Source of the DNA: Escherichia coli
GTDB taxonomy: Bacteria; Pseudomonadota; Gammaproteobacteria; Enterobacterales; Enterobacteriaceae
Direction: 5' to 3' (one strand)
Length of the DNA: 64,000 bases
Assembly: GCF_017348835.2 (NCBI RefSeq)
Contig: NZ_CP071375.1
Shown here piece after piece: positions 6,724-64,000 of this stretch (positions within the stretch are counted from its first letter, which is position 1; each line of letters opens with the position of its first letter). The notes below the pieces were generated by a model. That model made no database searches. It had not been told where the DNA came from and saw only the letters and a program-made list of their open reading frames with translations. The translations under genes were made by a program, and so were the position numbers.

Positions 6724-7767
6724 TTAACGGGTGATCCACAACGTGGGCCAGGCGTCTGGCCCATGCCAGTTATCGCAGGTGGGTTCTGCGGCGTAACGCA
6801 CCAGGCGAAAACGCTGACCGTCAAAGCGCCAGCGCGCCTGAATGCCACAATCGCTTAATCCGCGCCCTTTCGCTAAGGTCACCAGCTCACGCGATTTCTC
6901 ATCAAATGTTGCGTTCATCAGTTCCAGTTCATTTGTCTCCTGCCCGTTGTTGAACGGCAAACGCAACCGAACCGGACGCGAGGCTAGTGGCTTTTTACGC
7001 GACACAATCCATGCCAAATCAATGGTGTTATAGGCCCCTGCCTCACAGCTAATCATCATCAGCGCTTTATCATCAGTCAGCGCAGTGACATTCACCTCAC
7101 GACGCAATGGATCAAGCGAGCAGCGCAGACCATTCATCCGCCAGTTTCCATAATCCAGCAAATCGTTGCGTTCTTCGAGTGAGAGTGGCGTCGGCGTTGG
7201 GTTAACCACCACGACCTCTTTCAGCGCAGGCGCGGGCGGTACGCTGAGCGGCGGTTCGTCCCCTTTCTTGATCCACGCGTTTTCACTGCCAACGCGCTTT
7301 TGCTGAGCATCAATAAACAACAACGCCGCTTTTAAGCCACTCAGAGAAATGGTCTGATTGCCGTCGCGTAAGGTGATCGCCTTCCCTTCCTGAATCATCT
7401 GCAAAAACGCGGTGATGGTTGCCGTATCATCGGTTACTAATAACCATGGTGAAATCCGCCACTTGTCACCACTTAACGCCAACGGCTCGCCATCTAACAG
7501 CAGCCGTGGCGCAATTTCCCCTTCAGACGCATCCGGCGACTTCAACCCGCCGCGCTCAATACGTAAAACGGCATCGGTATGCGCCCCGGCGCTGCGGCTC
7601 AGGGTCATCACCAGTCCATTATGATCGCCCGTATTACGCGCCACGCAGAAGTTTTGGTTATTACAGGTGACCTGCCAGTCGGAAAACGCCCGTTGCGCTG
7701 GTGCCGCCCACACCAAAGACGTCGGCAACAAAGCGAAAAAAAAGAGAAGGAAAATGCGATAGCGCAT
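6724..7767 (-). CDS. ypfG: DUF1176 periplasmic protein YpfG
   Basis: 347-aa ORF with N-terminal signal peptide; length and position match K-12 ypfG. Confidence 0.85.
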   Translation of the reverse strand: MRYRIFLLFFFALLPTSLVWAAPAQRAFSDWQVTCNNQNFCVARNTGDHNGLVMTLSRSAGAHTDAVLRIERGGLKSPDASEGEIAPRLLLDGEPLALSGDKWRISPWLLVTDDTATITAFLQMIQEGKAITLRDGNQTISLSGLKAALLFIDAQQKRVGSENAWIKKGDEPPLSVPPAPALKEVVVVNPTPTPLSLEERNDLLDYGNWRMNGLRCSLDPLRREVNVTALTDDKALMMISCEAGAYNTIDLAWIVSRKKPLASRPVRLRLPFNNGQETNELELMNATFDEKSRELVTLAKGRGLSDCGIQARWRFDGQRFRLVRYAAEPTCDNWHGPDAWPTLWITR

Positions 7768-10720: not shown

Positions 10721-12421
10721 GTGATTGTTAAACGACCCGTCTCGGCCAGTCTGGCCCGGGCCTTTTTTTACATTGTGCTGCTGTCGATTCTTTCCACGGG
10801 TATCGCTCTGCTAACTCTGGCGAGCAGTTTGCGCGACGCTGAGGCTATCAATATTGCCGGATCGCTGCGTATGCAGAGTTACCGCCTGGGCTACGACTTG
10901 CAAAGTGGCAGTCCACAACTCAATGCACATCGCCAGTTATTTCAGCAGGCACTGCATTCACCGGTATTAACCAACCTCAACGTCTGGTATGTGCCAGAAG
11001 CAGTAAAAACTCGCTATGCGCATCTGAATGCAAACTGGCTGGAGATGAATAATCGGCTCAGCAAGGGCGATTTGCCGTGGTATCAGGCCAATATTAATAA
11101 TTATGTTAATCAGATAGACCTGTTCGTGCTGGCTTTACAGCACTACGCTGAACGCAAAATGCTGCTGGTGGTGGCGATTTCCCTGGCTGGCGGTATCGGT
11201 ATTTTCACGCTGGTCTTTTTTACTTTGCGCCGCATACGCCATCAGGTGGTTGCCCCGCTGAATCAGCTGGTTACCGCCAGTCAGCGTATTGAACACGGAC
11301 AGTTCGACTCGCCGCCGCTGGATACCAGTCTGCCGAATGAGCTTGGTCTGCTTGCAAAAACCTTTAACCAGATGTCGAGCGAGCTGCATAAATTGTACCT
11401 TTCGCTGGAGGCGTCAGTAGAAGAAAAGACCCGCGATCTCCACGAGGCCAAGCGTCGTCTGGAGGTGTTGTATCAGTGTTCGCAGGCGCTGAACACCAGC
11501 CAGATTGATGTGCATTGTTTCCGCCATATTTTGCAGATTGTTCGCGACAATGAAGCGGCTGAATATCTGGAGCTGAACGTTGGGGATAACTGGCGGATTA
11601 GCGAAGGGCAACCAAACCCGGAATTGCCGATGCAGATTTTACCGGTGACAATGCAAGAGACGGTTTACGGCGAACTGCACTGGCAAAATAGTCACGTTTC
11701 ATCATCAGAACCGCTGCTTAACAGCGTTTCGTCGATGCTGGGACGCGGTTTGTACTTTAATCAGGCGCAGAAGCATTTTCAGCAGTTATTGTTGATGGAA
11801 GAACGTGCGACCATCGCCCGCGAATTGCACGACTCGCTGGCTCAGGTGCTTTCTTACTTACGTATCCAGTTGACGTTACTTAAGCGTTCGATACCGGAAG
11901 ATAACGCCACCGCACAAAGTATCATGGCCGATTTTTCCCAGGCGTTGAATGATGCTTATCGGCAGTTACGCGAGCTGTTGACTACTTTCCGCCTGACGCT
12001 GCAGCAGGCGGATCTCCCCTCCGCGTTGAGGGAAATGCTGGATACGTTACAAAATCAAACCAGCGCCAAACTGACCCTCGACTGCCGTCTGCCAACCCTG
12101 GCACTGGATGCGCAAATGCAGGTGCATTTGTTGCAAATTATTCGCGAAGCGGTGCTGAATGCGATGAAGCACGCCAACGCCAGCGAAATCGCCGTCAGTT
12201 GCGTCACCGCGCCGGACGGCAATCACACGGTTTATATCCGTGATAACGGGATTGGTATCGGTGAACCGAAAGAGCCCGAAGGTCATTATGGACTGAATAT
12301 CATGCGCGAACGCGCGGAACGGCTGGGCGGGACGCTGACTTTTTCACAACCTTCCGGCGGCGGCACGTTAGTGAGTATTAGCTTTCGCTCCGCGGAGGGT
12401 GAGGAAAGTCAGCTGATGTAA
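10721..12421 (+). CDS. narQ: Nitrate/nitrite sensor histidine kinase NarQ
   Basis: Two transmembrane segments, HAMP, H-box (ELHDSLAQ) and ATPase domain; GTG start at 10721 chosen to give the 566-aa K-12 product (the ORF track starts at 10706). Confidence 0.9.
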   Translation: MIVKRPVSASLARAFFYIVLLSILSTGIALLTLASSLRDAEAINIAGSLRMQSYRLGYDLQSGSPQLNAHRQLFQQALHSPVLTNLNVWYVPEAVKTRYAHLNANWLEMNNRLSKGDLPWYQANINNYVNQIDLFVLALQHYAERKMLLVVAISLAGGIGIFTLVFFTLRRIRHQVVAPLNQLVTASQRIEHGQFDSPPLDTSLPNELGLLAKTFNQMSSELHKLYLSLEASVEEKTRDLHEAKRRLEVLYQCSQALNTSQIDVHCFRHILQIVRDNEAAEYLELNVGDNWRISEGQPNPELPMQILPVTMQETVYGELHWQNSHVSSSEPLLNSVSSMLGRGLYFNQAQKHFQQLLLMEERATIARELHDSLAQVLSYLRIQLTLLKRSIPEDNATAQSIMADFSQALNDAYRQLRELLTTFRLTLQQADLPSALREMLDTLQNQTSAKLTLDCRLPTLALDAQMQVHLLQIIREAVLNAMKHANASEIAVSCVTAPDGNHTVYIRDNGIGIGEPKEPEGHYGLNIMRERAERLGGTLTFSQPSGGGTLVSISFRSAEGEESQLM

Positions 12422-15846: not shown

Positions 15847-16218
15847 GTTCAATCATAACAACCTCTCTTATAATTATGGGTATTCTACGGAAACAATATA
15901 CCGTGGTGAAGCTAATTTACTCGATTGCTGCGATGACTACCTCCGGGGGACAAACCTTATGTAAATACTATGGTCCTGCGGTGATGATTTGTATGTGATA
16001 CACAGCAACATTTCGAGATATTCATACGGCATCTAATACTGATTTAATTCTGGTTAAAATACAGACAGATAACAAGATGAATATTCTTAATGTTTACGTT
16101 AAAAATGTTTAATATTATTTAATAGTTGTTAATTTGAATACTTCGATAATGTTATATTTCCTGATAATCATTTGCAGGCAAAATGTTTTCACCCTTAAAT
16201 GAGTATTTATTCTCATAA

Positions 16219-16593
<375 letters not shown>

Positions 16594-36898: not shown

Positions 36899-36924
36899 GA
36901 AGGATTTCTCATTAATAAGGACTG

Positions 36925-51721: not shown

Positions 51722-53965
51722 TCAGGCACTTTCGCGAATGGGTTCGATTTCATTCAGCGTATCAATTAACGGTTGCGGCTTACCAATAAGATAACCCTGC
51801 ATATAATCGATCCCCAAAGAGAGCACTGCCTCGCGGATCTCTTCGTTTTCAACGTACTCTGCCACTACCAGCATTTTCTTCATTCGCGCCAGGTGGCAAA
51901 TCGATGCCACTATCTGATAATCCAGACTATTTGACACAATATTGCGGATAAAACTGCCGTCAATTTTAAGCAGATCGGCATTCACATTTTTAAGCCGCGC
52001 ATAGCTGGCGTAGCCGGTGCCGAAATCATCAATCGCAATCTGGCAGCCTAATTCCTGAAGATGCTGCAAGGTGATTTGCGCCTGCTTAACATTGGTCAGA
52101 GCATTACTTTCGGTGACTTCAAAAATAAGTTGCCACGCTTCAATCTGATATTTAGCCAGCAACTGACTGACTTCAACAGGAAAACGAGCCTGACATACCG
52201 AGGTTGGAGACAGATTAATAGCAAAACGGTGAGCGGGCATCTTCGCTCTGTTTTCAGCCATAAATTGCAGCGTATGCTCAATGACCCACATGTCGATACT
52301 CGACGATAAACCAAATTCGTGCGCGACCGGCAAGAAGCTATCGGGGCTGATCAGTTCATCATTCTCACCTTTCATGCGCAGAAGAATTTCATGGTAAACA
52401 TCACCACGCATACCGGTAATTGGCTGGGCCATCAGGAAAAAATGGTTGTGTTCCAGCGCCTGCTGTAGTCGATTCATCATCGCGACTTTATCTTTCAATT
52501 CGCGTTGCAAATACATTGCCCCGCGACGCTGCATATTTTCCGGGGCGTTGGTCACGATGGAAAGTTCGGCGACCGTATTTAGCTCTCCCAGCAGCAGGTA
52601 GATATAATTCACTGGCGAGCGCACATAGCAGTAACTGACGCCAATCTGCGGTTGCATCGGCATGCCATCCCAAAAGAAACGAAATTGCTTGAGATGGCTA
52701 TCCAGTGCGGTAATGCGCTCCTGGTGCGATTCTGTATTCAGTCGCAGCGCGAGATCGTTACCCGAAAGCTGATAAACATCTTCACCCGGTTCCAGCAATG
52801 GTGACAGCCAGTGAGAAAGTTTTTGCTTGTATTGAATCCGCAGCATGATGCCATAGTTTTTAACCAGCATTTCCATGCCAGGGATGCGTAAATAACAAAG
52901 CGCAGACCAGGGGGCATCACGCAACGCGCGATTCAGGGCGCGAACATTTGGCAGATGAACCACCGGGTCCACATACGCAAGCCGCTGAATGCGTCTGACT
53001 ACCGTTCTCTGACGGGTTGCCAGTACAGCCATATAATTGACAATAAAAGAGAATACCAGATAACTGGAGGAGGTTATGGTCAGCTGCGTGGTATAGCCGG
53101 GATAAATGGGAATGTAATTTTGATAGCTGTGGATGCTGATCATCAACACGACCGCCCAGAGCAGTGAAATCAGCTTATAACCATAGCGCATCGCTCCCCA
53201 CATCATCAGGGGCAGCAATAATGACAAGGTATAATTGGTGCTAAAAATTGTGCTTTTTTCATTTAACGGCATGCATAACAGCAACAGTAAAGCACCTAAT
53301 GCCAGTAGCCAGAGTGCGAACTCTTTTTTGGTGACTTTGACATCAACCTGCTGTTTTAATTGCGAATAATAACTACGTAAATAAAACGGATTTCGAACTA
53401 CCCGAATGATGAAGTAGCACAGCGGGACACCAATCAGATTGCCCACCAGTAAGGCCTGATAATTGATTAAAGTCCCGAGGTTAAAAGGCATGACACCGAC
53501 CAGATTTTCTCTGCTCGCCAGTAATCCTACAAATGCAGCAAACTGGAAAAGTATCAGAAACAGCGTTGCAGGAAACACAATCTGCCAGAATATACGCTGG
53601 GAAATTAAACGGGTATCACCATGTGAAACGTTGTTACGCCGGGGAGTAAAGACCCTGTAACCGCCCCAACAGAGAATGATAATGATGATAAAATTAGCCG
53701 TTAATGAGAGCGTTTCGTAAAAACCCAGCTCTGCATATTTGCGGACAAAAATCCCTAAGGCGATCCCTGGCAATGCCGCCCAGCTGAAAAACATCATCAT
53801 GCTGATCATCAGTGCCAAAGGCAGATAAAAGAGAAAAACCTCACCGGAAGAAATATGCGCGAAAGTATTAATGTGGGCGAAAATAGGCAAGATTAAAGAA
53901 GGCAGGAACAGCGGAAGCCCCCACCATTTATCACGTATTTTTATATAAGTTGCATTCAGTTTCAT
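51722..53965 (-). CDS. pdeF: Membrane-anchored cyclic-di-GMP phosphodiesterase (degenerate GGDEF plus EAL domain) YfgF/PdeF
   Basis: 747-aa ORF with an N-terminal multi-TM region and a C-terminal EAL domain (EVTES ... DDFGTGYAS). Confidence 0.9.
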   Translation of the reverse strand: MKLNATYIKIRDKWWGLPLFLPSLILPIFAHINTFAHISSGEVFLFYLPLALMISMMMFFSWAALPGIALGIFVRKYAELGFYETLSLTANFIIIIILCWGGYRVFTPRRNNVSHGDTRLISQRIFWQIVFPATLFLILFQFAAFVGLLASRENLVGVMPFNLGTLINYQALLVGNLIGVPLCYFIIRVVRNPFYLRSYYSQLKQQVDVKVTKKEFALWLLALGALLLLLCMPLNEKSTIFSTNYTLSLLLPLMMWGAMRYGYKLISLLWAVVLMISIHSYQNYIPIYPGYTTQLTITSSSYLVFSFIVNYMAVLATRQRTVVRRIQRLAYVDPVVHLPNVRALNRALRDAPWSALCYLRIPGMEMLVKNYGIMLRIQYKQKLSHWLSPLLEPGEDVYQLSGNDLALRLNTESHQERITALDSHLKQFRFFWDGMPMQPQIGVSYCYVRSPVNYIYLLLGELNTVAELSIVTNAPENMQRRGAMYLQRELKDKVAMMNRLQQALEHNHFFLMAQPITGMRGDVYHEILLRMKGENDELISPDSFLPVAHEFGLSSSIDMWVIEHTLQFMAENRAKMPAHRFAINLSPTSVCQARFPVEVSQLLAKYQIEAWQLIFEVTESNALTNVKQAQITLQHLQELGCQIAIDDFGTGYASYARLKNVNADLLKIDGSFIRNIVSNSLDYQIVASICHLARMKKMLVVAEYVENEEIREAVLSLGIDYMQGYLIGKPQPLIDTLNEIEPIRESA

Positions 53966-54508: not shown

Positions 54509-54601
54509 CGGTTACCTTCTCCACTTTCACAGAACATAACGGCACTTTGAACCGCCCCGGAAATCCTGGAGACTAAACTCCCTGAGAAAGAGGTAAACAG
54601 G

Positions 54602-54928
54602 ATGACTAAAAATACTCGTTTTTCCCCCGAAGTCCGTCAGCGGGCGATTCGTATGGTTCTGGAAAGTCAGGATGAATATGACTCACAGTGGGCGGCAATT
54701 TGTTCCATTGCCCCAAAGATTGGCTGTACGCCGGAGACTCTGCGTGTCTGGGTTCGCCAGCATGAGCGGGATACCGGGAGTGGTGATGGTGGACTCACCA
54801 CCGCTGAACGTCAGCGTCTGAAAGAGCTGGAACGTGAAAATCGTGAACTGCGCCGCAGTAACGATATCCTTCGCCAGGCTTCCGCTTATTTTGCGAAGGC
54901 GGAGTTCGACCGCCTCTGGAAAAAATAA
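54602..54928 (+). CDS. IS3-family transposase OrfA (HTH DNA-binding part)
   Basis: 108-aa [33 protein letters not shown]... with a leucine-zipper-like C-terminus; A-rich slippery run (ggaaaaaataatg) at its 3' end. Confidence 0.85.
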
Positions 54929-55815
54929 TGCCACTGCTGGATAAGCTGCGTGAGCAGTACGGGGTCGGACCGGTATGCAGCGAACTGCATATTGCCCCGT
55001 CAACGTATTACCATTGTCAGCAACAGCGACATCATCCGGATAAACGCAGTGCCCGTGCGCAGCACGATGACTGGCTGAAGAAAGAGATACAGCGCGTATA
55101 CGATGAAAATCACCAGGTATACGGTGTGCGTAAAGTCTGGCGTCAGTTGTTACGGGAAGGTATCAGAGTGGCCAGATGCACTGTGGCACGTCTCATGGCA
55201 GTTATGGGACTTGCCGGTGTTCTCCGGGGTAAAAAGGTCCGCACTACCGTCAGCCGGAAAGCCGTTGCCGCATGCGACCGCGTAAACCGTCAGTTCGTGG
55301 CAGAACGTCCAGACCAGTTGTGGGTGGCTGATTTTACCTGGGTAAGCACATGGCAGGGCTTCGTTTATGTGGCGTTCATCATTGATGTGTTCGCCGGATA
55401 CATCGTGGGATGGCAGGTCTCATCATCCATGGAAACAACATTCGTGCTGGATGCACTGGAGCAGGCGTTGTGGGCCCGTCGGCCGTCCGGCACAATCCAT
55501 CACAGTGATAAAGGTTCTCAGTATGTATCGCTGGCCTACACGCAGCGGCTTAAGGAAGCCGGATTACTGGCATCAACAGGGAGTACTGGCGACTCGTATG
55601 ACAACGCGATGGCTGAGAGCATCAATGGTCTTTACAAAGCGGAGGTAATACACCGTAAGAGCTGGAAAAACCGGACAGAAGTGGAACTGGCCACACTAAC
55701 GTGGGTGGACTGGTATAACAATCGACGATTGCTGGAAAGGCTGGGCCATATTCCTCCGGCAGAAGCAGAAAAAGCTTATTATGCTTCCATCGGAAATAAT
55801 GATCTGGCAGCCTGA
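54928..55815 (+). CDS. IS3-family transposase OrfB (DDE integrase catalytic domain)
   Basis: 295-aa ORF in the -1 frame relative to OrfA; rve/DDE core recognisable (WVADFTWVST ... DKGSQYVS ... DNAMAES). Confidence 0.85.
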   Translation: MPLLDKLREQYGVGPVCSELHIAPSTYYHCQQQRHHPDKRSARAQHDDWLKKEIQRVYDENHQVYGVRKVWRQLLREGIRVARCTVARLMAVMGLAGVLRGKKVRTTVSRKAVAACDRVNRQFVAERPDQLWVADFTWVSTWQGFVYVAFIIDVFAGYIVGWQVSSSMETTFVLDALEQALWARRPSGTIHHSDKGSQYVSLAYTQRLKEAGLLASTGSTGDSYDNAMAESINGLYKAEVIHRKSWKNRTEVELATLTWVDWYNNRRLLERLGHIPPAEAEKAYYASIGNNDLAA

Positions 55816-56045
55816 GTTCACAGATAAAACACTCTCCAGGAAACCCGGGGCGGTTCAAACTCGTACAGTGGCGTACCACTGGGGTCCATTCCTTCAAGTC
55901 TCAGGGAAGCCTCTGCTTTGCGGAAGCCCTCAATGCGTAACCGTGTATAGGGAGTCCTAGACATGTTTTTCCTTTGAGTTGCAGGAGTGAGGTTCGCTCA
56001 GTGAAAGCGTCAGCTCACGCAACCTCGTTAACTGACGCGCGTGAT

Positions 56046-57446
56046 TCAAGATTTATTATTACCCGATAAGCTATCACCGGCAAAATCATCATGTTCGCGG
56101 TTATCCCGACGAGTAGCTGTTTGTTTACTTATCTGAGTCGCCAACTCCTCTCCAATAGTTTGTTGGGCACGAGAAGAACTGCTACTTCGCTTCATTCTCT
56201 GGTACTCAGCAGCTCCGTTAGCCATGCTGCTTCCCATATGGCTTGCCATGCGGCCAGCACGCGAGAATGAAGCAAACCCCTGACTTCCTCCACTGGCGCT
56301 ACCTGAACTGCTCCCTGCAGACGAACCACTGTAACCGCCTGAGGTTTGGCCTCCAGAAGTATCTACAGAACCGGTATCTTCCCCGCCGCCAAATCCTCCA
56401 CCGGAACCGCCTCCGCTGCCTGAACCAGATTCTTCGTCCATGGCAGCTTGCGCAGACTCGAATGCTGCCTTTAATGCTGAAGCTCCGCCGCTGACTTGAG
56501 CTGATGCCCCCATTGCCATTGCTCCAGCACCGCTGATGGCAGTAGCGGCTGCGCCGGTAATCATACCCGCCCCAAATCCACCAATCCCTTGTAAAGAAGC
56601 CCCTCCTACAACACCTGATAACAACAGTGGTAGCTTATTAGTTAATACTAACAGGATAATTGACGCCAGAAGCAAAACTATAAGACTATTAAGATCAGGA
56701 ACATCATCTTTAATAAGAGAAAAATATTGATCTATAAATGATTGTCCAATCCCAATAATTAATGTCATCGTGAATAATTGAATGCCAATCGATAAAACAG
56801 TTCGTAAGTAATTAATTGCTATATCAGAGGTCCATTTCGAACCACCAAACCCAAGCAATATAACTCCTGCATAACATAACACCCATGCAGAAACCAACAT
56901 GATTAGCATATTTATCGCTATAAGGGACATCACTACCAAAACGATTATCGCGACTGTTATCATAATGGTGGATATCATTGGCGACCAAATTGATGCGGCT
57001 GAACTGATCTTGGTTAATATCGCAAACGCCATATCAACTATGCTTGAGGGAGAAATACCAATACTTATTTCTAAAGCGTTTGCTGCAAGTTGTCTCATTG
57101 AATTAATTATGGATTGCGATATGGATGGACCGTTGATTAAAAGATAATAAAAAAAACCAATGACGGCAAAAAAGCGAACTATTTCAGCAAGTACCCCTGT
57201 CAACCCTTCCCCTTGCATCGCCATCATACCAAATGTCCAAACCATACTTATTAATACCAGCCCCCAGAAGAGCCAATTTGCATAGTCAGCAATTACTGCT
57301 GTCCATGTACTGGCTACTTGTTGAAACTTATCTAATAAAGTATCAAGTAGCCCGCTACTATCTAATTGACCAGCATAGGCATTAATAGAAAAGAAAAGTA
57401 TGATACCTAAAAAGGTGAGCTTACTTACTATTTTCATGATTACCAT
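56046..57446 (-). CDS. trbL: TrbL/VirB6-family conjugative transfer membrane protein
   Basis: 466-aa ORF with signal peptide, several TM helices and a long Gly/Ser-rich hydrophilic C-terminal tail, the TrbL/VirB6 architecture; synteny with trbJ and a small lipoprotein gene upstream. Confidence 0.65.
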   Translation of the reverse strand: MVIMKIVSKLTFLGIILFFSINAYAGQLDSSGLLDTLLDKFQQVASTWTAVIADYANWLFWGLVLISMVWTFGMMAMQGEGLTGVLAEIVRFFAVIGFFYYLLINGPSISQSIINSMRQLAANALEISIGISPSSIVDMAFAILTKISSAASIWSPMISTIMITVAIIVLVVMSLIAINMLIMLVSAWVLCYAGVILLGFGGSKWTSDIAINYLRTVLSIGIQLFTMTLIIGIGQSFIDQYFSLIKDDVPDLNSLIVLLLASIILLVLTNKLPLLLSGVVGGASLQGIGGFGAGMITGAAATAISGAGAMAMGASAQVSGGASALKAAFESAQAAMDEESGSGSGGGSGGGFGGGEDTGSVDTSGGQTSGGYSGSSAGSSSGSASGGSQGFASFSRAGRMASHMGSSMANGAAEYQRMKRSSSSSRAQQTIGEELATQISKQTATRRDNREHDDFAGDSLSGNNKS

Positions 57447-57631
57447 TCTCGTTTAGGGCTTGGTTTATTATTACTCCGTAGAGCACATTTATCGTATTTA
57501 TGTTCATCAAATTTATTATCTGGCATCGATAAACAATCTTTATCATTTTTATCGCAAGAACATATGGCCAATAAACTGATCAGAATAAATACAATCAAAA
57601 AATTATCTTTCATTCTGCGTTTCCTCACCAA
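57440..57631 (-). CDS. Small lipoprotein in the TrbK (IncP entry-exclusion) position
   Basis: 63-aa ORF with a hydrophobic leader and Cys-containing lipobox-like motif (LLAICSCDK); overlaps the trbJ stop and trbL start, as trbJ-trbK-trbL does in IncP plasmids. Confidence 0.45.
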   Translation of the reverse strand: MVRKRRMKDNFLIVFILISLLAICSCDKNDKDCLSMPDNKFDEHKYDKCALRSNNKPSPKREW

Positions 57632-58419
57632 ATTCGCTTCGGGCTTGGTGTATTCTCTCCAGCTAACGCTTTTTCATCAGCGGCTATCTGTTGTGATTCT
57701 TTATCTGCCTGAGCCTGTGCCAGTGTTGCTGCAGCGTTTTGTTGGGCTACCAGAAGTGAGCGGATTTGCAGTAACTGATTTGTCTGTGCACTGGCAAGCT
57801 GGTTTGCCGCCTGAATAGCTTCCATTTGCCCTTGTGCGCCGCTTGCCTGAGTTTGTAATTCGGCAAGATTATCAGCATCGCTCTGCAGGGTGTTCTGCTG
57901 CTCGTCAATTACCTTAAATACTGCGTCATTGGCCTTTTTACGCGCCCCTGAGCTATTCTGTTCAGCTTCACGCAGTGCACTAATTTCAGACGCGGTACAT
58001 TCAACATTGCTGTTAAAGCAAGACGATGTCCTGTAGTAGTTAACATCCTGATAGCGTTTCAGGTACGCATCGAGACTCCCGGCCTGATTCTTGTAGTAAT
58101 TAAGGGTATCCTGCACCTGCAACAATTTATTAATTGTTGAATTTGCCTGGTCCCAGATATAGGCCGCAGGAGCTACGGTGTTCTGCAGCATGTTTTCATA
58201 CTGCTGCAGCTGCGTCTGGTACTGCTGGATTTGTTTAGTCACAGCCTGAACGTTGTTAACTGCGCTGATTGTGGTCTGAACCACATTAGTGCCATCAATA
58301 ACGGGAATTCCGGCCTTCACCGGTAATGCCATGACGGACGCCACGAAAGGAACTATTAAAGCTTTTTTAGCGGCTAAAATCCCTCTTTGTGATGAAACCA
58401 CTCGGAACTTTAAATTCAT
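57625..58419 (-). CDS. trbJ: TrbJ/VirB5-family conjugative transfer protein
   Basis: 264-aa ORF with signal peptide and Gln/Ala-rich coiled-coil stretches typical of TrbJ/VirB5 minor pilus/adhesin proteins. Confidence 0.6.
   Translation of the reverse strand: MNLKFRVVSSQRGILAAKKALIVPFVASVMALPVKAGIPVIDGTNVVQTTISAVNNVQAVTKQIQQYQTQLQQYENMLQNTVAPAAYIWDQANSTINKLLQVQDTLNYYKNQAGSLDAYLKRYQDVNYYRTSSCFNSNVECTASEISALREAEQNSSGARKKANDAVFKVIDEQQNTLQSDADNLAELQTQASGAQGQMEAIQAANQLASAQTNQLLQIRSLLVAQQNAAATLAQAQADKESQQIAADEKALAGENTPSPKRIW
58365..58379. promoter_or_regulatory. KorB-operator-like palindrome TTTTAGCGGCTAAAA (copy 1, inside the 5' end of trbJ)
   Basis: Perfect inverted repeat containing TTTAGCGGCTAAA, identical to the IncP-1 KorB operator consensus TTTAGC(G/C)GCTAAA. 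Confidence 0.6.
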
Positions 58420-58499
58420 TTGCTCACCTCTTTTTCAACAGATTAGTAATATTTAACACTCTGTCTGTTAACAGACGCAGGTATATAGGAAACCACACA

Positions 58500-58865
58500 T
58501 TATTTATCCAAGATTTTATCCATAATGTTCCTTAGTTCTTGCCGAGTTGATTCTATTTTCGCAAGCAAGGTTCTTATCAGTGTGGGTGAAAAATCAACTG
58601 TTCGAGGATCATTTGCGAGCCATAATTTAAGTAATCCGCCAAGTCTTCCAAGATCAGCATTTACTCGGCTAAGTTCATTAACCTGTTTTATATCTACGAT
58701 AGAATCAACCTGATAACCCATTGCAACTCTACGAACAAAACAGGCAACACTTAATCCAGATGCTTCTGCATTTTCTTGGATGAGAATTTTTTCTTCGGGT
58801 AAACAATAAACTTTTATTGGCGTACTATTTTTTCTAGTCTGAGTAACTTTCATATAGCTCTCCAT
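58500..58865 (-). CDS. MobC-family relaxosome accessory protein (ribbon-helix-helix)
   Basis: 121-aa ORF; VYCLPEEKILIQENAEASGLSVACFVRRVAMG ... LSRVNADLGRLGGLLKLW fits the MobC-family pattern; lies directly beside a candidate oriT region. Confidence 0.55.
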   Translation of the reverse strand: MESYMKVTQTRKNSTPIKVYCLPEEKILIQENAEASGLSVACFVRRVAMGYQVDSIVDIKQVNELSRVNADLGRLGGLLKLWLANDPRTVDFSPTLIRTLLAKIESTRQELRNIMDKILDK

Positions 58866-58939
58866 ACAGGCGGTAGCCTGGCAGCCTCGCAGAGCAGGAC
58901 GCCCTTGAGCCGCGATGCGGCGAATAGGGAGTGGTAAAG

Positions 58940-58995
58940 TTGGAACACCGTAGCGGTGGGCCCACTTTACATGTCCTGCCCTGCAGTTGCCGTTG
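58940..58995. promoter_or_regulatory. Candidate origin of transfer (oriT-like region)
   Basis: 10-bp perfect palindrome GTGGGCCCAC (58956-58965) immediately followed by CTTTACATGTCCTGCCCTGCAG, which resembles my recollection of the IncP nic region (core TCCTGCCC); adjacent to the MobC-like gene. Confidence 0.35.
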
Positions 58996-59252
58996 TATAT
59001 CTGTGCACGACAATGTGTATTTCAGTGTACAGGATGTGTTTTCTTAGCGTATTAATATAGGATTACTGGAGTAAATTTCTGCAGCAAATGTGTTTTTTGC
59101 AAGGAAACTATATTTCTCCCTTTTGAAAATGACCTTTAGTAGTTATAAATGGACGTCCACCAACTGTATTTATGTTTCGATATATTGTAAGAAGTCTTTC
59201 ATTTTCCGATGCACTTTTTTACTTACCTTGTCAGAGCATGTGCATTGCAGAT

Positions 59253-59265
59253 TTTAGCGGCTAAA
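59253..59265. promoter_or_regulatory. KorB-operator-like palindrome (copy 2)
   Basis: aTTTTAGCGGCTAAAATc; exact match to the IncP-1 KorB operator core, in the 675-bp intergenic region. Confidence 0.6.
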
Positions 59266-59501
59266 ATCTGCCTCCCTATGCCTAAAGCTAGGGGCGTACC
59301 TCATATGTCATAAAATCTACCTCAAGTGTCAATATACCAAACGTGTAAGTAATCTCTTCTTCTGGCGTACAACCATCGGTCTTTGGCCGATTCTAGATTT
59401 GAAAGCGCCTGCTCAGGCAGGTGATTTCAAAGCCTGAATATACTGGTTGATCCTGAATAACCTGCAAAGGAGTTAAAAAATCAGGCCTCTGTAGCACACT
59501 G

Positions 59502-59562
59502 GCGGGCCGTTACAGCACATCACCGGGCCGTAACGACACGTTACCGGGCCGTTGTAGCTCGT
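59502..59562. repeat. Three direct iteron-like repeats with 21-bp periodicity
   Basis: CGGGCCGT recurs at 59503, 59524 and 59545 with similar flanks (..TACAGCACAT / ..AACGACACGT / ..TGTAGCTCG); the third overlaps the stop codon of the putative initiator gene. Confidence 0.5.
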
Positions 59563-60314
59563 TTTATCCTAGAATTTTGTATCTCAATGCCAATCGCTAG
59601 AAATTGTTTGCTATCTTCTTTTAATCTCCGCCGATAGTTACGTAATGTCATATTATTGGTACCTTCACCACTGACAGCTAAAATTAATGTATCAATATGC
59701 CAGCCGCCTTTAGGATCGTGCTTATGTGTTAATATATGACGTGCAACTGCTTGGCTAATACCATGCTGGAGACGAGCAATAGGACCTGGATCATGATGAA
59801 AATGCAAATCTCGCTTCAACAACATTACCAATGCAACACCCAAGCGTACTCTCCATAGGTTACGTTCACCACCAGTTAGAGGATTACGCCTAGTCATTGG
59901 TGAGGGTACGACATGGTCAATTAAACCGCCTAGAATGCAATAACCGTTTTTTTCTAAATCTGGCGTTACTATTTCAACAGTTGCCACACGTAGATCAACG
60001 AGTAGTTTTTTAATTCGATCATAACTGTATTGTGCATCGGATAGAGTTCGGCGTACTTTCGCTGGATCTACTAATAACTCGATTCCTCCATCAGAAATTT
60101 CTCGACGTTTCTCGGCCACATAGAGCATTGTTTCCACAATATCCGCATGACGTTGTCCTAGTCTTCCGGTAACTCGACAACGACCAAAACTAGTCTCCAT
60201 CCACTGCCCCTTCAGCGCCAAGGGACGTTGACTTGGTTGGTACAGAATGACTCTAGCCTGCAGAGCTGTGCTAGTAGGTGTAACTTTATTACCAGTTATC
60301 ATTTTCTGCACCAC
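59541..60314 (-). CDS. Hypothetical protein, possible replication initiator (RepC-like by position)
   Basis: 257-aa basic protein directly downstream of the RepA-like helicase gene and ending in the iteron-like repeats; assignment rests on gene order, not on recognised motifs. Confidence 0.35.
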   Translation of the reverse strand: MVQKMITGNKVTPTSTALQARVILYQPSQRPLALKGQWMETSFGRCRVTGRLGQRHADIVETMLYVAEKRREISDGGIELLVDPAKVRRTLSDAQYSYDRIKKLLVDLRVATVEIVTPDLEKNGYCILGGLIDHVVPSPMTRRNPLTGGERNLWRVRLGVALVMLLKRDLHFHHDPGPIARLQHGISQAVARHILTHKHDPKGGWHIDTLILAVSGEGTNNMTLRNYRRRLKEDSKQFLAIGIEIQNSRIKRATTAR

Positions 60315-60330
60315 TCAATGAAGACATACA

Positions 60331-61146
60331 TTATTTTGCTATTTGTTTTTTATTCTTCGATTTGAGTTGCGTTATCCTTAATACTCCTCCCTCATGTCTC
60401 TGTAACCAACGTTCTGGCGTACGTTCTCCATAATTTGCTTTATTTATTCCAAATCTAACAAATTGACCTCGAACATCATCAGAAATATCATACGTCTTCG
60501 CTTCTAAGGCGGTCATGCCCGCCAGATAAGATTGCCACCGTATATTATCAACCAGGACGCTACTACCCCTGCTTGCCTGCTGTATATCACCAACTCCCAT
60601 CGTGGCAGAGCCTTTGTTTGAATGGTGTAGAAATATAATCGAACACCCTGTATCAGCAGCAATACCTTCTAGCTTTCCAATGACTTTGGACATTGCTCCG
60701 CTATTATTTTCATCTTCCTGGTGGAAACGGCGAAGAGTATCCAAAATTATTAACCGTCTACTTTTTGAAATCTCATTAATCAAGTTGCTCCAACCTGGCG
60801 AGAAAATATTTGGACACTTCCCTACCAAAGGTTCGACAAGTAGCTTATCAGCAACAATCTGCTGCTGACGTGCTGTTAGATATTTTCCCAAAGCATATAG
60901 ACGATGGTGAATGATGGTTGCAGAGTCCTCCACAGGTAAATATGCCACTAACCCCGTTGGATATTCACCAAAGTTTAAAAGATCTACACCACAAGTAATC
61001 TGCACAGCCAGTTGCAATGCCAGCATTGACTTTCCAACGCCTCCCGGAGAAACAATCGCTCCGATAGTACCAATAGCCAAATTAGGCAAGACGTAATCAA
61101 TTGGTTGCGGCTTAGCTTCAAATGCTTCCATTATGTTCAATGACAT
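60331..61146 (-). CDS. RecA-fold AAA_25 ATPase, RSF1010 RepA-like replicative helicase
   Basis: 271-aa ORF with Walker A (SPGGVGKSMLALQLA) and Walker B-like (RLIILDTL) motifs; size and motif layout as in IncQ RepA. Confidence 0.6.
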   Translation of the reverse strand: MSLNIMEAFEAKPQPIDYVLPNLAIGTIGAIVSPGGVGKSMLALQLAVQITCGVDLLNFGEYPTGLVAYLPVEDSATIIHHRLYALGKYLTARQQQIVADKLLVEPLVGKCPNIFSPGWSNLINEISKSRRLIILDTLRRFHQEDENNSGAMSKVIGKLEGIAADTGCSIIFLHHSNKGSATMGVGDIQQASRGSSVLVDNIRWQSYLAGMTALEAKTYDISDDVRGQFVRFGINKANYGERTPERWLQRHEGGVLRITQLKSKNKKQIAK

Positions 61147-61151
61147 TGCTG

Positions 61152-61403
61152 TTACCTACCTAAAACAATACCGGGTCTGGCTGCTTTAAACATTGCTGAT
61201 TTACGATCCGCAATCCACTGTTCCACTTCGGATAACTGCCATGCAACATTTCGGCTCGTAAGTGCTATACGGCGAGGAAACTCGCCTCGCTGTTCAAGGT
61301 TATAAATAGTGCGGGCTGACAATGGGATCATTTCCAGAAGTGTTTTTCTGTTAATGAGCGTGCTATGTGCCTTTGTTTGCATCTGCCTTCCTCCTGTTTC
61401 CAA
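61152..61403 (-). CDS. alpA: AlpA-family prophage/island transcriptional regulator (excisionase-like)
   Basis: 83-aa ORF with the AlpA HTH signature (LSARTIYNLEQRGEFPRRIALTSRNVAWQLSEVEQWI). Confidence 0.7.
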   Translation of the reverse strand: METGGRQMQTKAHSTLINRKTLLEMIPLSARTIYNLEQRGEFPRRIALTSRNVAWQLSEVEQWIADRKSAMFKAARPGIVLGR

Positions 61404-61459
61404 TCAGGCCTATACAATGCCAAGCATTACCACTTGCTAAAACCTATTCATTGGCTAAA

Positions 61460-62431
61460 ATGGTTGACATGAAAATTACTATCTGGGAAGGCTGTGACCT
61501 CACAGTTGCAGCTGCAATTAAATTATTTGTAGAGCGTAGTTCTCCGTACTCCATATTTTCACGGAGGTATCCAATACTGCGTCTCATACAGGAAGTTATT
61601 GATCCAGCAGTAGCTGATTATGTAAATTCCCTGCCACCAAGTCATAAAGACTACATTTCTGGAGTAAATCTAGGATTTAGTGAAGTACTTAAAAAATTGG
61701 GTTTAAACGTCGTAGTACAGGCACAAAGACTTCTTTTGCGTAATTTCGTTCTGACTTTAGATCAACAAACTTCTCTTGATAAATGCTTTACCGCTACGAT
61801 TGAGTCTCTTATTGAATTAGTCAGTGAATGCGCATCCAAGCGGCCGAAGAAATCCTCTCCTGCAAAAGGAGTAACTATAAATTCACAGCGTAAGCTCGGT
61901 TATTGCGAGTTCTGCGGTAATCTAACCGAATTTTCCAAGTTGATCAGTGAGATATCAGAATTTGTTGCTAACGATAATGAGTTCCCCGTTCATGAAAAAC
62001 AGGTCCTTAGTCATCGATATTGTTCTGACCATAGGCCCAAACTCACCAATGGTCTATGGAATCCCAAATACAGACAAGGAAAGCGGTCTCTCGAACAGTT
62101 CAATAAAGAATTAATAAGGCTTAGACGGCAATGCGCTAAACCTCATAAAGCTAACGCAAACACAGGGGATATATTGATTGATACATATTTTCATGAGTGG
62201 ATGCAGGGTCAAACTTTAACCCCAGCAGATCTAGATAAACTTAGGAATATCGCCAGACGAATGGTTGACTCCAAATTCACTGATACTAAGAAAAAAATAA
62301 TCATATTAAAACACCAAGGTTTTAACCAGTTTGAAACCGCACAGGTTTTAGAAAAAAATCACTACACAACTATGACAAAGCAGGCTGTGTCCAAGGCCTT
62401 AGCGTCTGTGAGGAAAGAATTTTATATTTAA
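61460..62431 (+). CDS. Hypothetical protein with Cys/His cluster and C-terminal helix-turn-helix
   Basis: ORF track starts at 61367, overlapping alpA; a more plausible start is the ATG at 61460 (MVDMKITIW). Contains CEFCGN ... HRYCSDH and a C-terminal HTH-like segment; no family recognised. Confidence 0.45.
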   Translation: MVDMKITIWEGCDLTVAAAIKLFVERSSPYSIFSRRYPILRLIQEVIDPAVADYVNSLPPSHKDYISGVNLGFSEVLKKLGLNVVVQAQRLLLRNFVLTLDQQTSLDKCFTATIESLIELVSECASKRPKKSSPAKGVTINSQRKLGYCEFCGNLTEFSKLISEISEFVANDNEFPVHEKQVLSHRYCSDHRPKLTNGLWNPKYRQGKRSLEQFNKELIRLRRQCAKPHKANANTGDILIDTYFHEWMQGQTLTPADLDKLRNIARRMVDSKFTDTKKKIIILKHQGFNQFETAQVLEKNHYTTMTKQAVSKALASVRKEFYI

Positions 62432-62856
62432 AATAGTATATCCACGAGCTATTATGGTGGCAGTTTAAGTCTTAATACCATCCACTTTATTGAATTATAA
62501 CCAGCCACTTACGAAGGTTTTTCGCGATTACCCTGCTTCAAATTGATGATTTTGAAAATACAGTATTATAGTTTATTGTTTGTAGCGCAGCTGTAAGCGT
62601 TATGCAAAATGGATCACAGTGATACGACCTCACCAGTAAATCACTGAAGCCGATCTGTAATGACATAGAACGAATTGGTTTTATGGTTATGCAATGGCTC
62701 ATCCCCTTACTTGTCCCTGACCATAAAAAGCATTCGCTTTCCTGAAAGCAAGTCTAAGCCAAGGGGCGTTTACAGTTGTCTTATCTTGACTCATTAGGTA
62801 CTGGCTTAATGATTAGAATCATGTCGGTGGCATTTAGGTCCAAATATGCCCAAAAT

Positions 62857-62869
62857 TTTAGCAGCTAAA
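62857..62869. promoter_or_regulatory. KorB-operator-like palindrome (copy 3, central A variant)
   Basis: aTTTTAGCAGCTAAAATt; same arms with a central A instead of G/C. Confidence 0.5.
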
Positions 62870-62900
62870 ATTCGTCTTCTCATGTAGGGTCAAGAAGCTT

Positions 62901-63098
62901 ATGACTAAACCTATTGATTATGTGAATTACCTTGTGAGTAATACTCGTAGGATGGAATCTTCCAAAACTCTGACAATTCACTCTGAATGCATGGTAACAA
63001 AGAACAGTTTAAACCATGGTCTGTTCAGCGTTAAATTTCTCAAGATAGACTTCCATTTCGCGAGTCCACCTAGGGGTAGGTACCGAGGTGATCATTAG
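62901..63098 (+). CDS. Small hypothetical ORF (65 aa), doubtful
   Basis: Begins about 30 bp after KorB-like copy 3 but overlaps the 3' end of the convergent 209-aa ORF; weak ribosome-binding site. Confidence 0.2.
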   Translation: MTKPIDYVNYLVSNTRRMESSKTLTIHSECMVTKNSLNHGLFSVKFLKIDFHFASPPRGRYRGDH

Positions 63099-63638
63099 CC
63101 AAGGAAACCACCATACAAGCATGAAGAGTAACATAAGCGGTGCGATCATTTCGGCCGAAGAATGAGAAACTATATACATAATGAATAATATTAGTAGAAC
63201 TGTGTTTACAATCTGACCTACCAGAAAAAGACGCCAGCGAAAACAATGCCATTTCCTGTTGAACACAATCCGTCCATCCCGTTCTTCGAGCCAGTTACGC
63301 CACGGCTTGAGATAACCAGCCCGCAACCCATAACGATCACACATTATTACAGCCAAATCCTGCAGCCGATAATTATACAAGCCTGTGAGCCGATAAAGGC
63401 TGCGCTGACGAAGCTCACGCTTTGCCAGACGGACCGCATTTTTATTCAAATATGGCTGTGTCAGCATTTGCTCTAGCCGGCGCTTCCTAAGATTGAGTAG
63501 TCCACGAAATACACTTCCAGATTCAGCATTAATTACTCTGTGACGAACTACACCGAGTGCAATATAGATACACAGCAATAGCCAGCCGGTCTTAGGGTAT
63601 TGATTCATCCATTGTATAATTACAGACAACTCAGGCAC
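63009..63638 (-). CDS. Hypothetical membrane protein (209 aa)
   Basis: Two to three predicted TM helices separated by an Arg-rich loop; KorB-like copy 4 lies about 55 bp upstream of its start; no family recognised. Confidence 0.5.
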   Translation of the reverse strand: MPELSVIIQWMNQYPKTGWLLLCIYIALGVVRHRVINAESGSVFRGLLNLRKRRLEQMLTQPYLNKNAVRLAKRELRQRSLYRLTGLYNYRLQDLAVIMCDRYGLRAGYLKPWRNWLEERDGRIVFNRKWHCFRWRLFLVGQIVNTVLLILFIMYIVSHSSAEMIAPLMLLFMLVWWFPWLMITSVPTPRWTREMEVYLEKFNAEQTMV

Positions 63639-63692
63639 TTTTATTTTTCCTTTTTATGCAATCCAGATAAAACCAGTAAAGATTCAGTAAAT

Positions 63693-63705
63693 TTTAGCGG
63701 CTAAA
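63693..63705. promoter_or_regulatory. KorB-operator-like palindrome (copy 4)
   Basis: aTTTTAGCGGCTAAAATt, between the 209-aa membrane protein gene and the integrase gene. Confidence 0.6.
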
Positions 63706-63761: not shown

Positions 63762-64000
63762 CTACTTACTAGTCCATTCATCAATCATATTCGCCCAATC
63801 TTGTAGCATCTCAGCCCTCTGCTCACGATATTCTGCCTTGTTATAAACAGCTCGTACCCCTTTTTGTTCATGGGCAAGGCTCTTCTCAATCCAGTCAGTA
63901 TTGTACCCGGCCTCATGTAGCAAGGTGCTGGCTGTACGCCGTAAGTCATGGGGACCAAACTTAGGCAACAACTCCCCTTCTTTCTGAGCCAGGCGATACG
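63762..64000 (-). CDS. int: Tyrosine recombinase (P4-type integrase), C-terminal part; the gene continues past the window end
   Basis: Frame open to the window edge; C-terminal sequence ...GPHDLRRTASTLLHEAGYNTDWIEKSLAHEQKGVRAVYNKAEYREQRAEML contains the catalytic H-x-x-R and Tyr region of phage-type integrases. Confidence 0.75.
   Translation of the reverse strand, partial: YRLAQKEGELLPKFGPHDLRRTASTLLHEAGYNTDWIEKSLAHEQKGVRAVYNKAEYREQRAEMLQDWANMIDEWTSK

Follow-up and report, generated by a model that had tools for sequence, protein, structure and literature searches.

Putative KorB operators in a PIME1-type integrative mobilizable element at guaA of Escherichia coli and their probable use of a helper plasmid's KorB

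The contig NZ_CP071375.1 of Escherichia coli (E. coli) strain PE164 carries, within the stretch of 64,000 nucleotides analysed here (hereafter the window), an island at guaA, which belongs to the PIME1-type integrative mobilizable elements and was truncated by IS3. Four short palindromes fall within 5.4 kb of this island. Three of them are exact copies of the 13-bp operator of the IncP-1 plasmid protein KorB (KorB operator, OB), and the fourth differs at its central base. We propose that these palindromes are KorB operators used in trans, and that their likeliest output is mimicry of the helper plasmid's centromere together with titration of KorB. We put the probability of this reading, which is built on sequence comparison, at roughly two in three (0.68). 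Binding of the sites by KorB, supplied by an IncP-1-type plasmid, is the well supported part of it. The presence of OBs is confirmed as a family-wide, position-specific feature of a recently described and widespread family of elements.

The PIME1 family, which includes GIsul2 and the 'IncP islands', was described by Perta et al. (bioRxiv January 2026, doi 10.64898/2026.01.12.698999). These authors reported that excision and replication of PIME1 are induced by the IncP-1 plasmids pB10 and pKJK5 and not by IncN, IncX or IncL/M plasmids. Induction was shown for the PIME1 elements of E. coli RHB23-C07 and of Morganella morganii NCTC12028, with int, alpA and the luxR-family gene as requirements. 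After excision, replication raises the copy number of the element to about eight. When PIME1 replicates, the read depth of pB10 and the size of the colonies fall sharply, an effect that was described as 'potential incompatibility', and a mini-replicon made of repA and oriV seems to segregate poorly. The helper signal is said to be 'under investigation', and KorB, ParB, TrfA, operators and palindromes are nowhere mentioned in that text. A literature search returned nothing linking KorB with GIsul2 or PIME islands.

Putative KorB operators in the island and its relatives

A search of the 64-kb window with the strict pattern TTTAGCSGCTAAA found the 13-mer TTTAGCGGCTAAA at three positions. When the central base was left free, TTTAGCAGCTAAA, a variant with a central A and perfect arms, was found as the fourth site (sites 1 to 4 in Table 1). 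The OB consensus is the 13-bp palindrome TTTAGC(G/C)GCTAAA, to which three sites are exact matches. There are no further matches elsewhere in the window, even in a looser search with N at the centre and one mismatch permitted. The chance expectation per window is 0.01 for the strict pattern and 0.14 for the looser one, and the observed counts were reached in none of 100 dinucleotide-preserving shuffles. A sequence-only reading of this DNA had described four KorB-operator palindromes as far beyond chance, which these figures bear out. Its coordinate for the first 15-mer was exact, while its starts for the other three were one base low. Every one of the four sites can be extended to ATTTTAGCNGCTAAAAT or TTTTTAGCGGCTAAAAT, which makes a palindrome of 15-17 bp, and site 2 forms the middle of a perfect 25-bp palindrome (59247-59271).

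The same reading had placed one site inside trbJ and three in intergenic regions, in agreement with the feature positions. The gene that it called MobC-like codes instead for an IncP-type TraJ. Site 3 lies where the luxR-family gene and the gene for a 209-aa protein converge with their 3' ends, and sites 3 and 4 bracket a cargo slot between luxR and int. An intact copy of the element in another E. coli genome (locus L053), about 98-99% identical, has the same four sites, and its accessory genes are without any. Site 2 is also kept in E. coli relatives (93-99% identity) and in the mosaic element of E. coli S30.

To follow the sites beyond E. coli, 48 loci were used, one per species, from alpha-, beta- and gammaproteobacteria. 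They were retrieved by alignment of the LuxR-family protein and their LuxR-family proteins are 39-98% identical to the query. The exact 13-mer has 104 copies in the 799 kb of these loci, where about 0.05 are expected, and 45 of the 48 hold at least one. The 38 loci with int have 86 sites on the element side and none in the 262 kb of adjoining chromosome. The flanks of the OBs that follow the regulator genes are 33-34% identical among loci and the 12 specified bases are invariant, an invariance which is partly circular, as the sites were chosen by exact match. The scarcity of near-matches is an independent argument for purifying selection, with five one-mismatch copies against 104 exact ones.

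The positions of the sites are conserved as well. An OB lies at most 90 nt from the trbJ start in each of the 30 loci that hold the trbJ 5' end, and in related loci further OBs are found upstream of traJ or downstream of rep genes. Between the 3' end of luxR (or of luxR-alpA) and the 3' end of int there is at least one OB in 31 of 37 loci. It is usually located 20-35 bp past the stop codon of luxR or alpA, and it is seen in two different gene arrangements. In compact elements, this OB is squeezed between two convergent stop codons, and in cargo-bearing elements it remains beside luxR or brackets the cargo. Phytobacter (L004) has the same cargo bracket, and so does E. coli S30, whose slot is occupied by the gene of an EexN-family lipoprotein instead of that of the 209-aa protein. 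GIsul2, which has no luxR-family gene, retains the trbJ OB only.

Two plasmids were compared with the islands: R751 (IncP-1 beta; 50 kb scanned) and the 48-kb enterobacterial IncP plasmid pHKSHmcr1_P2_p1. The 13-mer occurs 13 times on pHKSHmcr1_P2_p1 and nine times in the scanned 50 kb of R751, and each of these plasmids encodes KorA, IncC and KorB. Most sites of pHKSHmcr1_P2_p1 have the extended form ATTTTAGCSGCTAAAAT, as in the island. An OB lies within the first 15-30 nt of trbJ in pHKSHmcr1_P2_p1 (L002, position 4828), in R751 (25579) and in GIsul2 (L052, 12027). The flanks of the plasmid trbJ OBs are homologous to the flank of island site 1, and therefore site 1 came with trbJ. The plasmids also carry OBs just after traJ and near trbB. 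Of 5426 complete E. coli genomes, 63 contain a plasmid of the pHKSHmcr1_P2_p1 type, and by sequence the enterobacterial IncP plasmid group is a plausible natural helper. Among the matches listed, no complete E. coli genome holds both the island and the IncP plasmid; about 1.4 such genomes would be expected.

The cargo slot of the S30 element (L054) contains at 16128-16435 a small hypothetical gene. A segment with 84% identity to this gene is found in IncP-type E. coli plasmids of 41 kb, where it lies about 800 bp from the korA-incC-korB operon. This sequence match indicates that genes are exchanged between islands and their likely helpers.

The source of KorB and the probable output of the sites

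The KorB, IncC, KorA and TrbA proteins of both plasmids gave no tblastn match at E<=1 in the window or in 50 related loci, so no cognate korB, with incC and korA, was found on the same replicon as the sites. It had been stated that the window holds no open reading frame (ORF) for KorB or ParB, and this is upheld by the search. One proposed source, an island-encoded ParB past position 64,000, is refuted: beyond the window the island continues for about 1.3 kb as far as guaA, and this part contains nothing but the remainder of int. Both plasmids carry the KorA operator (OA, GTTTAGCTAAAC). The window has none, and in the 48 related loci there are two isolated near-matches only. KorA and KorC operators in general were looked for on the islands and are absent there, though they are present on the plasmids. 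As korB and the KorA and KorC operators are missing, the elements have therefore kept or acquired the KorB site alone.

The other proposed source, KorB provided in trans by an IncP-1 plasmid, is strongly, although indirectly, supported. The support comes from the identity of the 13-mer with that of two KorB-encoding plasmids, from its conservation throughout the family, from the absence of korB, and from the published dependence of the family on IncP-1 helpers. Since the element has no korB of its own, its OBs would be occupied only when an IncP-1-type plasmid in the cell supplies KorB, together with IncC, in trans. We propose that the helper triggers excision and that the element then multiplies to several copies. 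The OBs of the excised element would serve both as a borrowed centromere, by which the element would ride the helper's IncC-KorB partition system, and as decoys for KorB. The helper would be perturbed by centromere-type incompatibility and by partial derepression of KorB-controlled genes. Secondary and non-exclusive effects can be envisaged. The OB at the trbJ start and the OBs that bracket the slot may put the trbJ-trbK-trbL operon and the slot genes under the influence of KorB, and the OB that is always placed after the luxR/alpA unit is possibly a part of helper sensing.

Centromere mimicry and titration are favoured because partition genes are absent, several sites lack a promoter context and there are no OA partners. 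They are favoured also because the element becomes multicopy once excised, because it is reported to depress the helper, and because SGI1 offers a precedent. The sites of the island are identical to those of the helper's ParB, and ParAB of its own is absent from the element. KorB is a CTP-dependent sliding clamp, which is a weak repressor alone and a strong one when KorA occupies an OA close by. A centromere or decoy role is preferred over classical repression, since the OBs between convergent stops leave no room for a promoter, and since the islands are without KorA operators and KorB alone represses weakly. By analogy, stabilisation of the excised element by the helper's ParAB and a dose-dependent destabilisation of the helper would follow, for which the evidence, namely the lowered pB10 abundance and the poor segregation of the mini-replicon, is circumstantial.

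Two functional mimics of parS of the IncC helper are present on SGI1. They make SGI1 more stable and displace the plasmid, in a manner that depends on copy number (Nucleic Acids Res 2024, PMC10954446). As in the PIME1 elements, a mobilizable element without partition genes carries the sites of the helper's ParB. In IncC plasmids, this ParB contains a KorB domain, and binding sites for it are dispersed across the backbone. Replication of the element sets in once the helper has induced excision, and it is to the detriment of the helper. In contrast, SGI1 belongs to another element family, with another helper group and another site sequence. Furthermore, PIME1 has two to four sites that are fixed relative to trbJ, oriT (origin of transfer) and the regulator gene, and KorB is additionally a global transcriptional regulator.

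The sequence-only reading had drawn its parallel with the AcaCD boxes of SGI1 and of mobilizable genomic islands (MGIs). The likeness is that the island has cis sites whose DNA-binding protein has its gene on the helper alone. However, AcaCD is an activator that works upstream of xis and transfer-gene promoters, whereas KorB is a ParB-type clamp and a repressor. The anatomy of the island also speaks against this parallel. No OB was found upstream of the promoters of the excision and regulator genes, the island OBs are not located at the alpA, luxR or int promoters, and several OBs lie between convergent stops. Promoter activation of the AcaCD kind is unsupported, because KorB alone is weak without KorA operators, which the islands lack. 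The parS mimicry of SGI1 would thus be the better parallel.

The OBs of the IncP-1 plasmids themselves (RK2/RP4, R751, pB10) resemble those of the island in several ways. The same 13-bp palindrome recurs at several places along the replicon, trbJ has one copy in its first codons, and some sites are promoter-proximal while others are far from promoters. The island differs from these plasmids in being a chromosomal integrative element without korB, incC, korA and KorA operators. It also has one site with a central A, and two sites that bracket the luxR-int cargo slot, a context which is absent on the plasmids.

Several points weigh against centromere mimicry and titration. What the sites do once they are bound is inferred throughout. 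For a centromere a single site would do, but two to four are maintained in PIME1, and their positions are fixed. As GIsul2 without luxR keeps the trbJ site only, the additional sites may belong to a regulatory module and not to partition. KorB is known as a repressor, while the net effect of the helper is induction. Our sample covers luxR-bearing loci and, of the PIMEs without luxR, GIsul2. KorB binding to site 3, with A/T at the centre, is putative. Finally, the OBs are probably idle in PE164, where the distal att (attachment) site is lost and no IncP plasmid was found; the plasmid checked in this strain, pPE164, is a degraded IncF plasmid without OB.

A second plasmid-like feature lies close to site 2. 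Two repeats, 31 bp away from this site (59297-59331), share a core with the oriV iterons of R751 and of pHKSHmcr1_P2_p1. In the latter, the iterons are (T/C)GACA(T/C)(T/A)TGAGGGGC with 22-bp spacing, beside trfA. The shared core, CCTCA(A/T)(A/G)TGTCA, is found in most PIME1 loci and in GIsul2, and in related PIME loci its pattern has about 55 matches where about one is expected. Examples are the copies at 7650/7674 and 11312/11336 in L016 and at 11174 and 11235 in GIsul2 (L052). Where the genes are arranged as luxR-alpA-int, the OB has an iteron-like copy behind it at a constant offset of 24 bp, and a second composite of OB and iteron is found, inverted, on the far side of the replication and regulation module. 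These repeats may capture the helper's TrfA and interfere with copy number, or they may serve the island's own initiator. If the helper's TrfA binds them, iteron titration would directly explain the lowered copy number of pB10. Three further direct repeats of 21 bp are candidate iterons of the island's own oriV; PIME1 oriV iterons have been located downstream of repA (Perta et al., doi 10.64898/2026.01.12.698999).

Neither the OB sites nor the IncP-type iteron-like repeats are reported in the PIME1 preprint. Conserved OBs without korB, together with these repeats, give a concrete molecular link to its open question of how the helper is sensed and depressed. If centromere mimicry and titration are right, this would be the second independent case, after SGI1 and IncC, of an island that copies the centromere or operator sites of its helper. 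This would suggest a tactic that is general among mobilizable islands, and the reach of the KorB sliding clamp would extend beyond its own plasmid.

Alternative explanations for the palindromes

The strongest alternative agrees with our reading on binding and differs in output only. KorB at the OB beside the luxR/alpA unit would signal the IncP-1 plasmid and switch on excision. Three routes could be considered: a block of convergent read-through between int and luxR/alpA, displacement of a silencer in the manner of VirB, or a partnership with the LuxR-family protein such as that of BisD with BisC. ParB-like CTP clamps, of which BisD and VirB are cases, are able to activate transcription. This explanation accounts well for the frequent OB between the luxR/alpA 3' end and int (31 of 37 loci), which stays with the luxR/alpA unit in two gene orders and despite cargo insertion, although six of the 37 loci are without it. 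The OBs other than that of trbJ track the luxR-family gene and are missing from GIsul2. Moreover, induction is IncP-1-specific and requires luxR and alpA. Against this, repression is the sole known effect of KorB, and the alpA-luxR promoter region is without an OB. With 38-44% GC against about 50%, the E. coli element is rich in AT like the targets of H-NS, as a silencing route would have it, but GC-rich relatives of the Xanthomonas type would not be H-NS targets. In addition, no island protein has a KorB-binding domain of the KorA/TrbA type, and the sole predicted promoter that overlaps site 3 is not conserved in the 93%-identical E. coli lineage. We regard helper sensing as the main output as possible, at clearly lower odds than centromere mimicry and titration.

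Three candidate features bearing on regulation were tried and rejected. A KorB-locking domain like that of KorA or TrbA was sought in the island proteins by tblastn, and none was found. An antisense promoter embedded in site 3 (ATGAGA-17-TAAAAT with TG) is lost in the 93% E. coli lineage and unsupported in the type (b) relatives. The alpA-luxR intergenic region has no OB and no conserved half-site; the GCTAAAA motifs at 61440-61475, considered as half-sites, align with a variable -10 element in relatives. The sequence GCTAAAAT in this region is the -10 element of luxR, which varies among relatives.

A more specific version combines both helper proteins. The KorB-CTP clamp at the luxR/alpA OB would trigger the island by relieving the silencing of, or interference with, luxR, alpA and int, and the iterons would capture TrfA and thereby lower the helper's copy number. 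We consider this combination doubtful. If it is true, a plasmid ParB would be a positive trigger in trans for a chromosomal parasite, the LuxR-family protein would possibly be the partner of the clamp, and two helper proteins would be manipulated through mimicked cis sites.

The palindromes could instead be operators of the island's own LuxR-family protein that resemble or copy the KorB site, in which case the island protein could also act on the OBs of the helper. This protein has a C-terminal helix-turn-helix (HTH) of the GerE/LuxR type, a class that binds palindromes as dimers. The OBs outside trbJ co-occur with its gene, and one of them lies just behind it. Yet the same 13-mer is found on IncP-1 plasmids and in trbJ of GIsul2, all without a homologue of this protein, and the protein has no similarity to KorB. 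The alpA-luxR promoter region, the place where autoregulation would be expected, has neither an OB nor a conserved half-site. As the full KorB consensus is kept across three proteobacterial classes, KorB is the simplest ligand, and we find operators of the LuxR-family protein unlikely.

It is slightly less likely still that the sites are inert relics of an IncP-1-like ancestor, from which they came along with the modules of trbJ, traJ and oriT. The homology of site 1 and its flank with the plasmid trbJ OB is clear, the plasmids too have OBs just after traJ and near trbB, and GIsul2 retains the trbJ site only. However, the excess of exact over one-mismatch copies within saturated flanks (33% identity) points to purifying selection. 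The luxR-int OBs are PIME1-specific with no counterpart on the plasmids, and the KorA and KorC operators, which accompany the OBs at plasmid promoters, were not retained.

Chance or a generic repeat of the host backbone can be dismissed, with 0.01-0.14 sites expected per window, none in the window outside the island and none in the 262 kb of flanking chromosome from 38 species.

Structure and gene content of the island

The features of the island are listed in Table 1. The gene order, on the minus strand unless noted, is the IS3 element, trbL, a 57-aa ORF, trbJ, traJ, the gene of a 257-aa protein, a RepA-type helicase, an AlpA-like excisionase, the LuxR-family regulator (plus strand), the 209-aa membrane protein and a tyrosine integrase, which is followed directly by guaA. 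Like the PIME1 and GIsul2 elements, the island is inserted at the guaA 3' end, has int, alpA, a luxR-family gene, repA, traJ, trbJ, trbL and an IncP-like oriT, and its alpA and luxR-family genes are divergent. The integrase gene adjoins the guaA 3' end with the att core GAGTGGGA, and the 16-bp att repeat AAATCATTCCCACTCA is located in the guaA 3' end at window-equivalent position 65254.

The intact element of L053 is 13.7 kb long and is bounded by the 16-bp att repeat, which contains the known GIsul2 core. Unlike the elements of Perta et al., the PE164 copy is truncated by IS3 and has no distal att. A 5.7-kb deletion adjacent to IS3 took yfgH, yfgI, the distal att repeat and the accessory genes, namely those of a DUF2290 protein, a DEAD/DEAH helicase and a recombinase and most of that of a HigA-like antitoxin. 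A single att copy is left, where excision uses two. Because the distal att was deleted next to IS3, the PE164 copy is incapable of att x att excision, and it is a remnant.

Table 1 Features of the PIME1-type island in the window.
Feature	Position	Strand	Basis or remark
IS3-family element	54546-55858	+	Comparison with the intact 13.7-kb L053 element
HigA-like antitoxin remnant	55859-55964	-	First island base after IS3; blastn against L053 from 17560
trbL (P-type VirB6)	56046-57446	-	TIGR02783, 270 bits
57-aa lipoprotein ORF, unannotated	57440-57613	-	LLAICSC lipobox; trbK position
trbJ (P-type VirB5)	57625-58419	-	Family search and protein comparison
OB site 1, TTTAGCGGCTAAA	58366-58378		Inside trbJ, codons 14-18, signal-peptide region
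traJ (IncP-type oriT-binding protein)	58500-58865	-	NCBIfam PRK13877, 160 bits
IncP-type oriT / traJ leader	58883-58981	-	Rfam traJ-II RF01760, 86.9 bits
OB site 2, TTTAGCGGCTAAA	59253-59265		Between oriT/traJ region and 257-aa ORF / replication genes
Two 21-bp-spaced repeats, TACCTCATATGTCA and TACCTCAAGTGTCA	59297-59331	+	Resemble IncP-1 oriV (TrfA) iterons
Candidate iterons of the island's own oriV, three 21-bp direct repeats (CGGGCCGTTACAGC...)	59503-59558	+	Repeat search
257-aa protein, beside repA	59541-60314	-	Found in many related loci
RepA-type helicase	60331-61146	-	RefSeq name; PHROGs primase/helicase families
alpA-like excisionase/regulator	61152-61382	-	PHROGs excisionase families; RefSeq HTH regulator
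LuxR-family regulator, PIME1 hallmark	61460-62431	+	Conserved CxxC...CxxH, C-terminal GerE/LuxR-type HTH
OB site 3, TTTAGCAGCTAAA	62857-62869		426 bp downstream of the luxR-family gene
209-aa predicted membrane protein in cargo slot	63009-63638	-	No family found
OB site 4, TTTAGCGGCTAAA	63693-63705		55 bp upstream of the 209-aa ORF, 57 bp downstream of the int stop
Tyrosine integrase, 3' end	63762-64000	-	Gene runs on to window-equivalent 64952

The transfer genes are close to those of enterobacterial IncP plasmids. TrbJ of the island is 86% identical to TrbJ of the enterobacterial IncP plasmids of the mcr-1 type, against 57% to that of R751, and TraJ is 65% identical to TraJ of pHKSHmcr1_P2_p1. 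The nic region of the island, GGGCAGGACATGTAAAG, is identical to that of the oriT of pHKSHmcr1_P2_p1, and a 17-nt inverted repeat lies at 58934-58970 within the oriT region. The spacer between traJ and trbJ (58420-58499) contains a 17-bp palindrome, CGTCTGTTAACAGACAG, which could be a terminator or an operator of the trbJ promoter. The 57-aa ORF sits between trbL and trbJ, in the place of the entry-exclusion gene trbK, and its counterpart is annotated as hypothetical in the related E. coli genomes L053 and L055. The 257-aa protein has no match in NCBIfam, Pfam or PHROGs; an IncQ-type RepC was considered for it and ruled out, as similarity is absent.

The LuxR-family regulator matched no family in Pfam, NCBIfam or PHROGs. 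Its residues C149, C152, C188 and H191 are invariant, and this CxxC...CxxH arrangement suggests a zinc site. In the model of the protein, the N-terminal helical part is confident and unmatched, and the fold search recognised the generic C-terminal HTH of the GerE/sigma-4 type alone. In its promoter, the -10 element directly adjoins the first ATG, and residue 4 is the Met that is nearly invariant, a sequence arrangement that suggests a leaderless mRNA or one with a very short leader.

Outside the island, two genes of the window are annotated as damaged in PE164. The gene pdeF, for a cyclic-di-GMP phosphodiesterase (51722-53965), is annotated as a pseudogene with an internal stop, and hyfR, upstream of it (about 36900-38900), is annotated as frameshifted.

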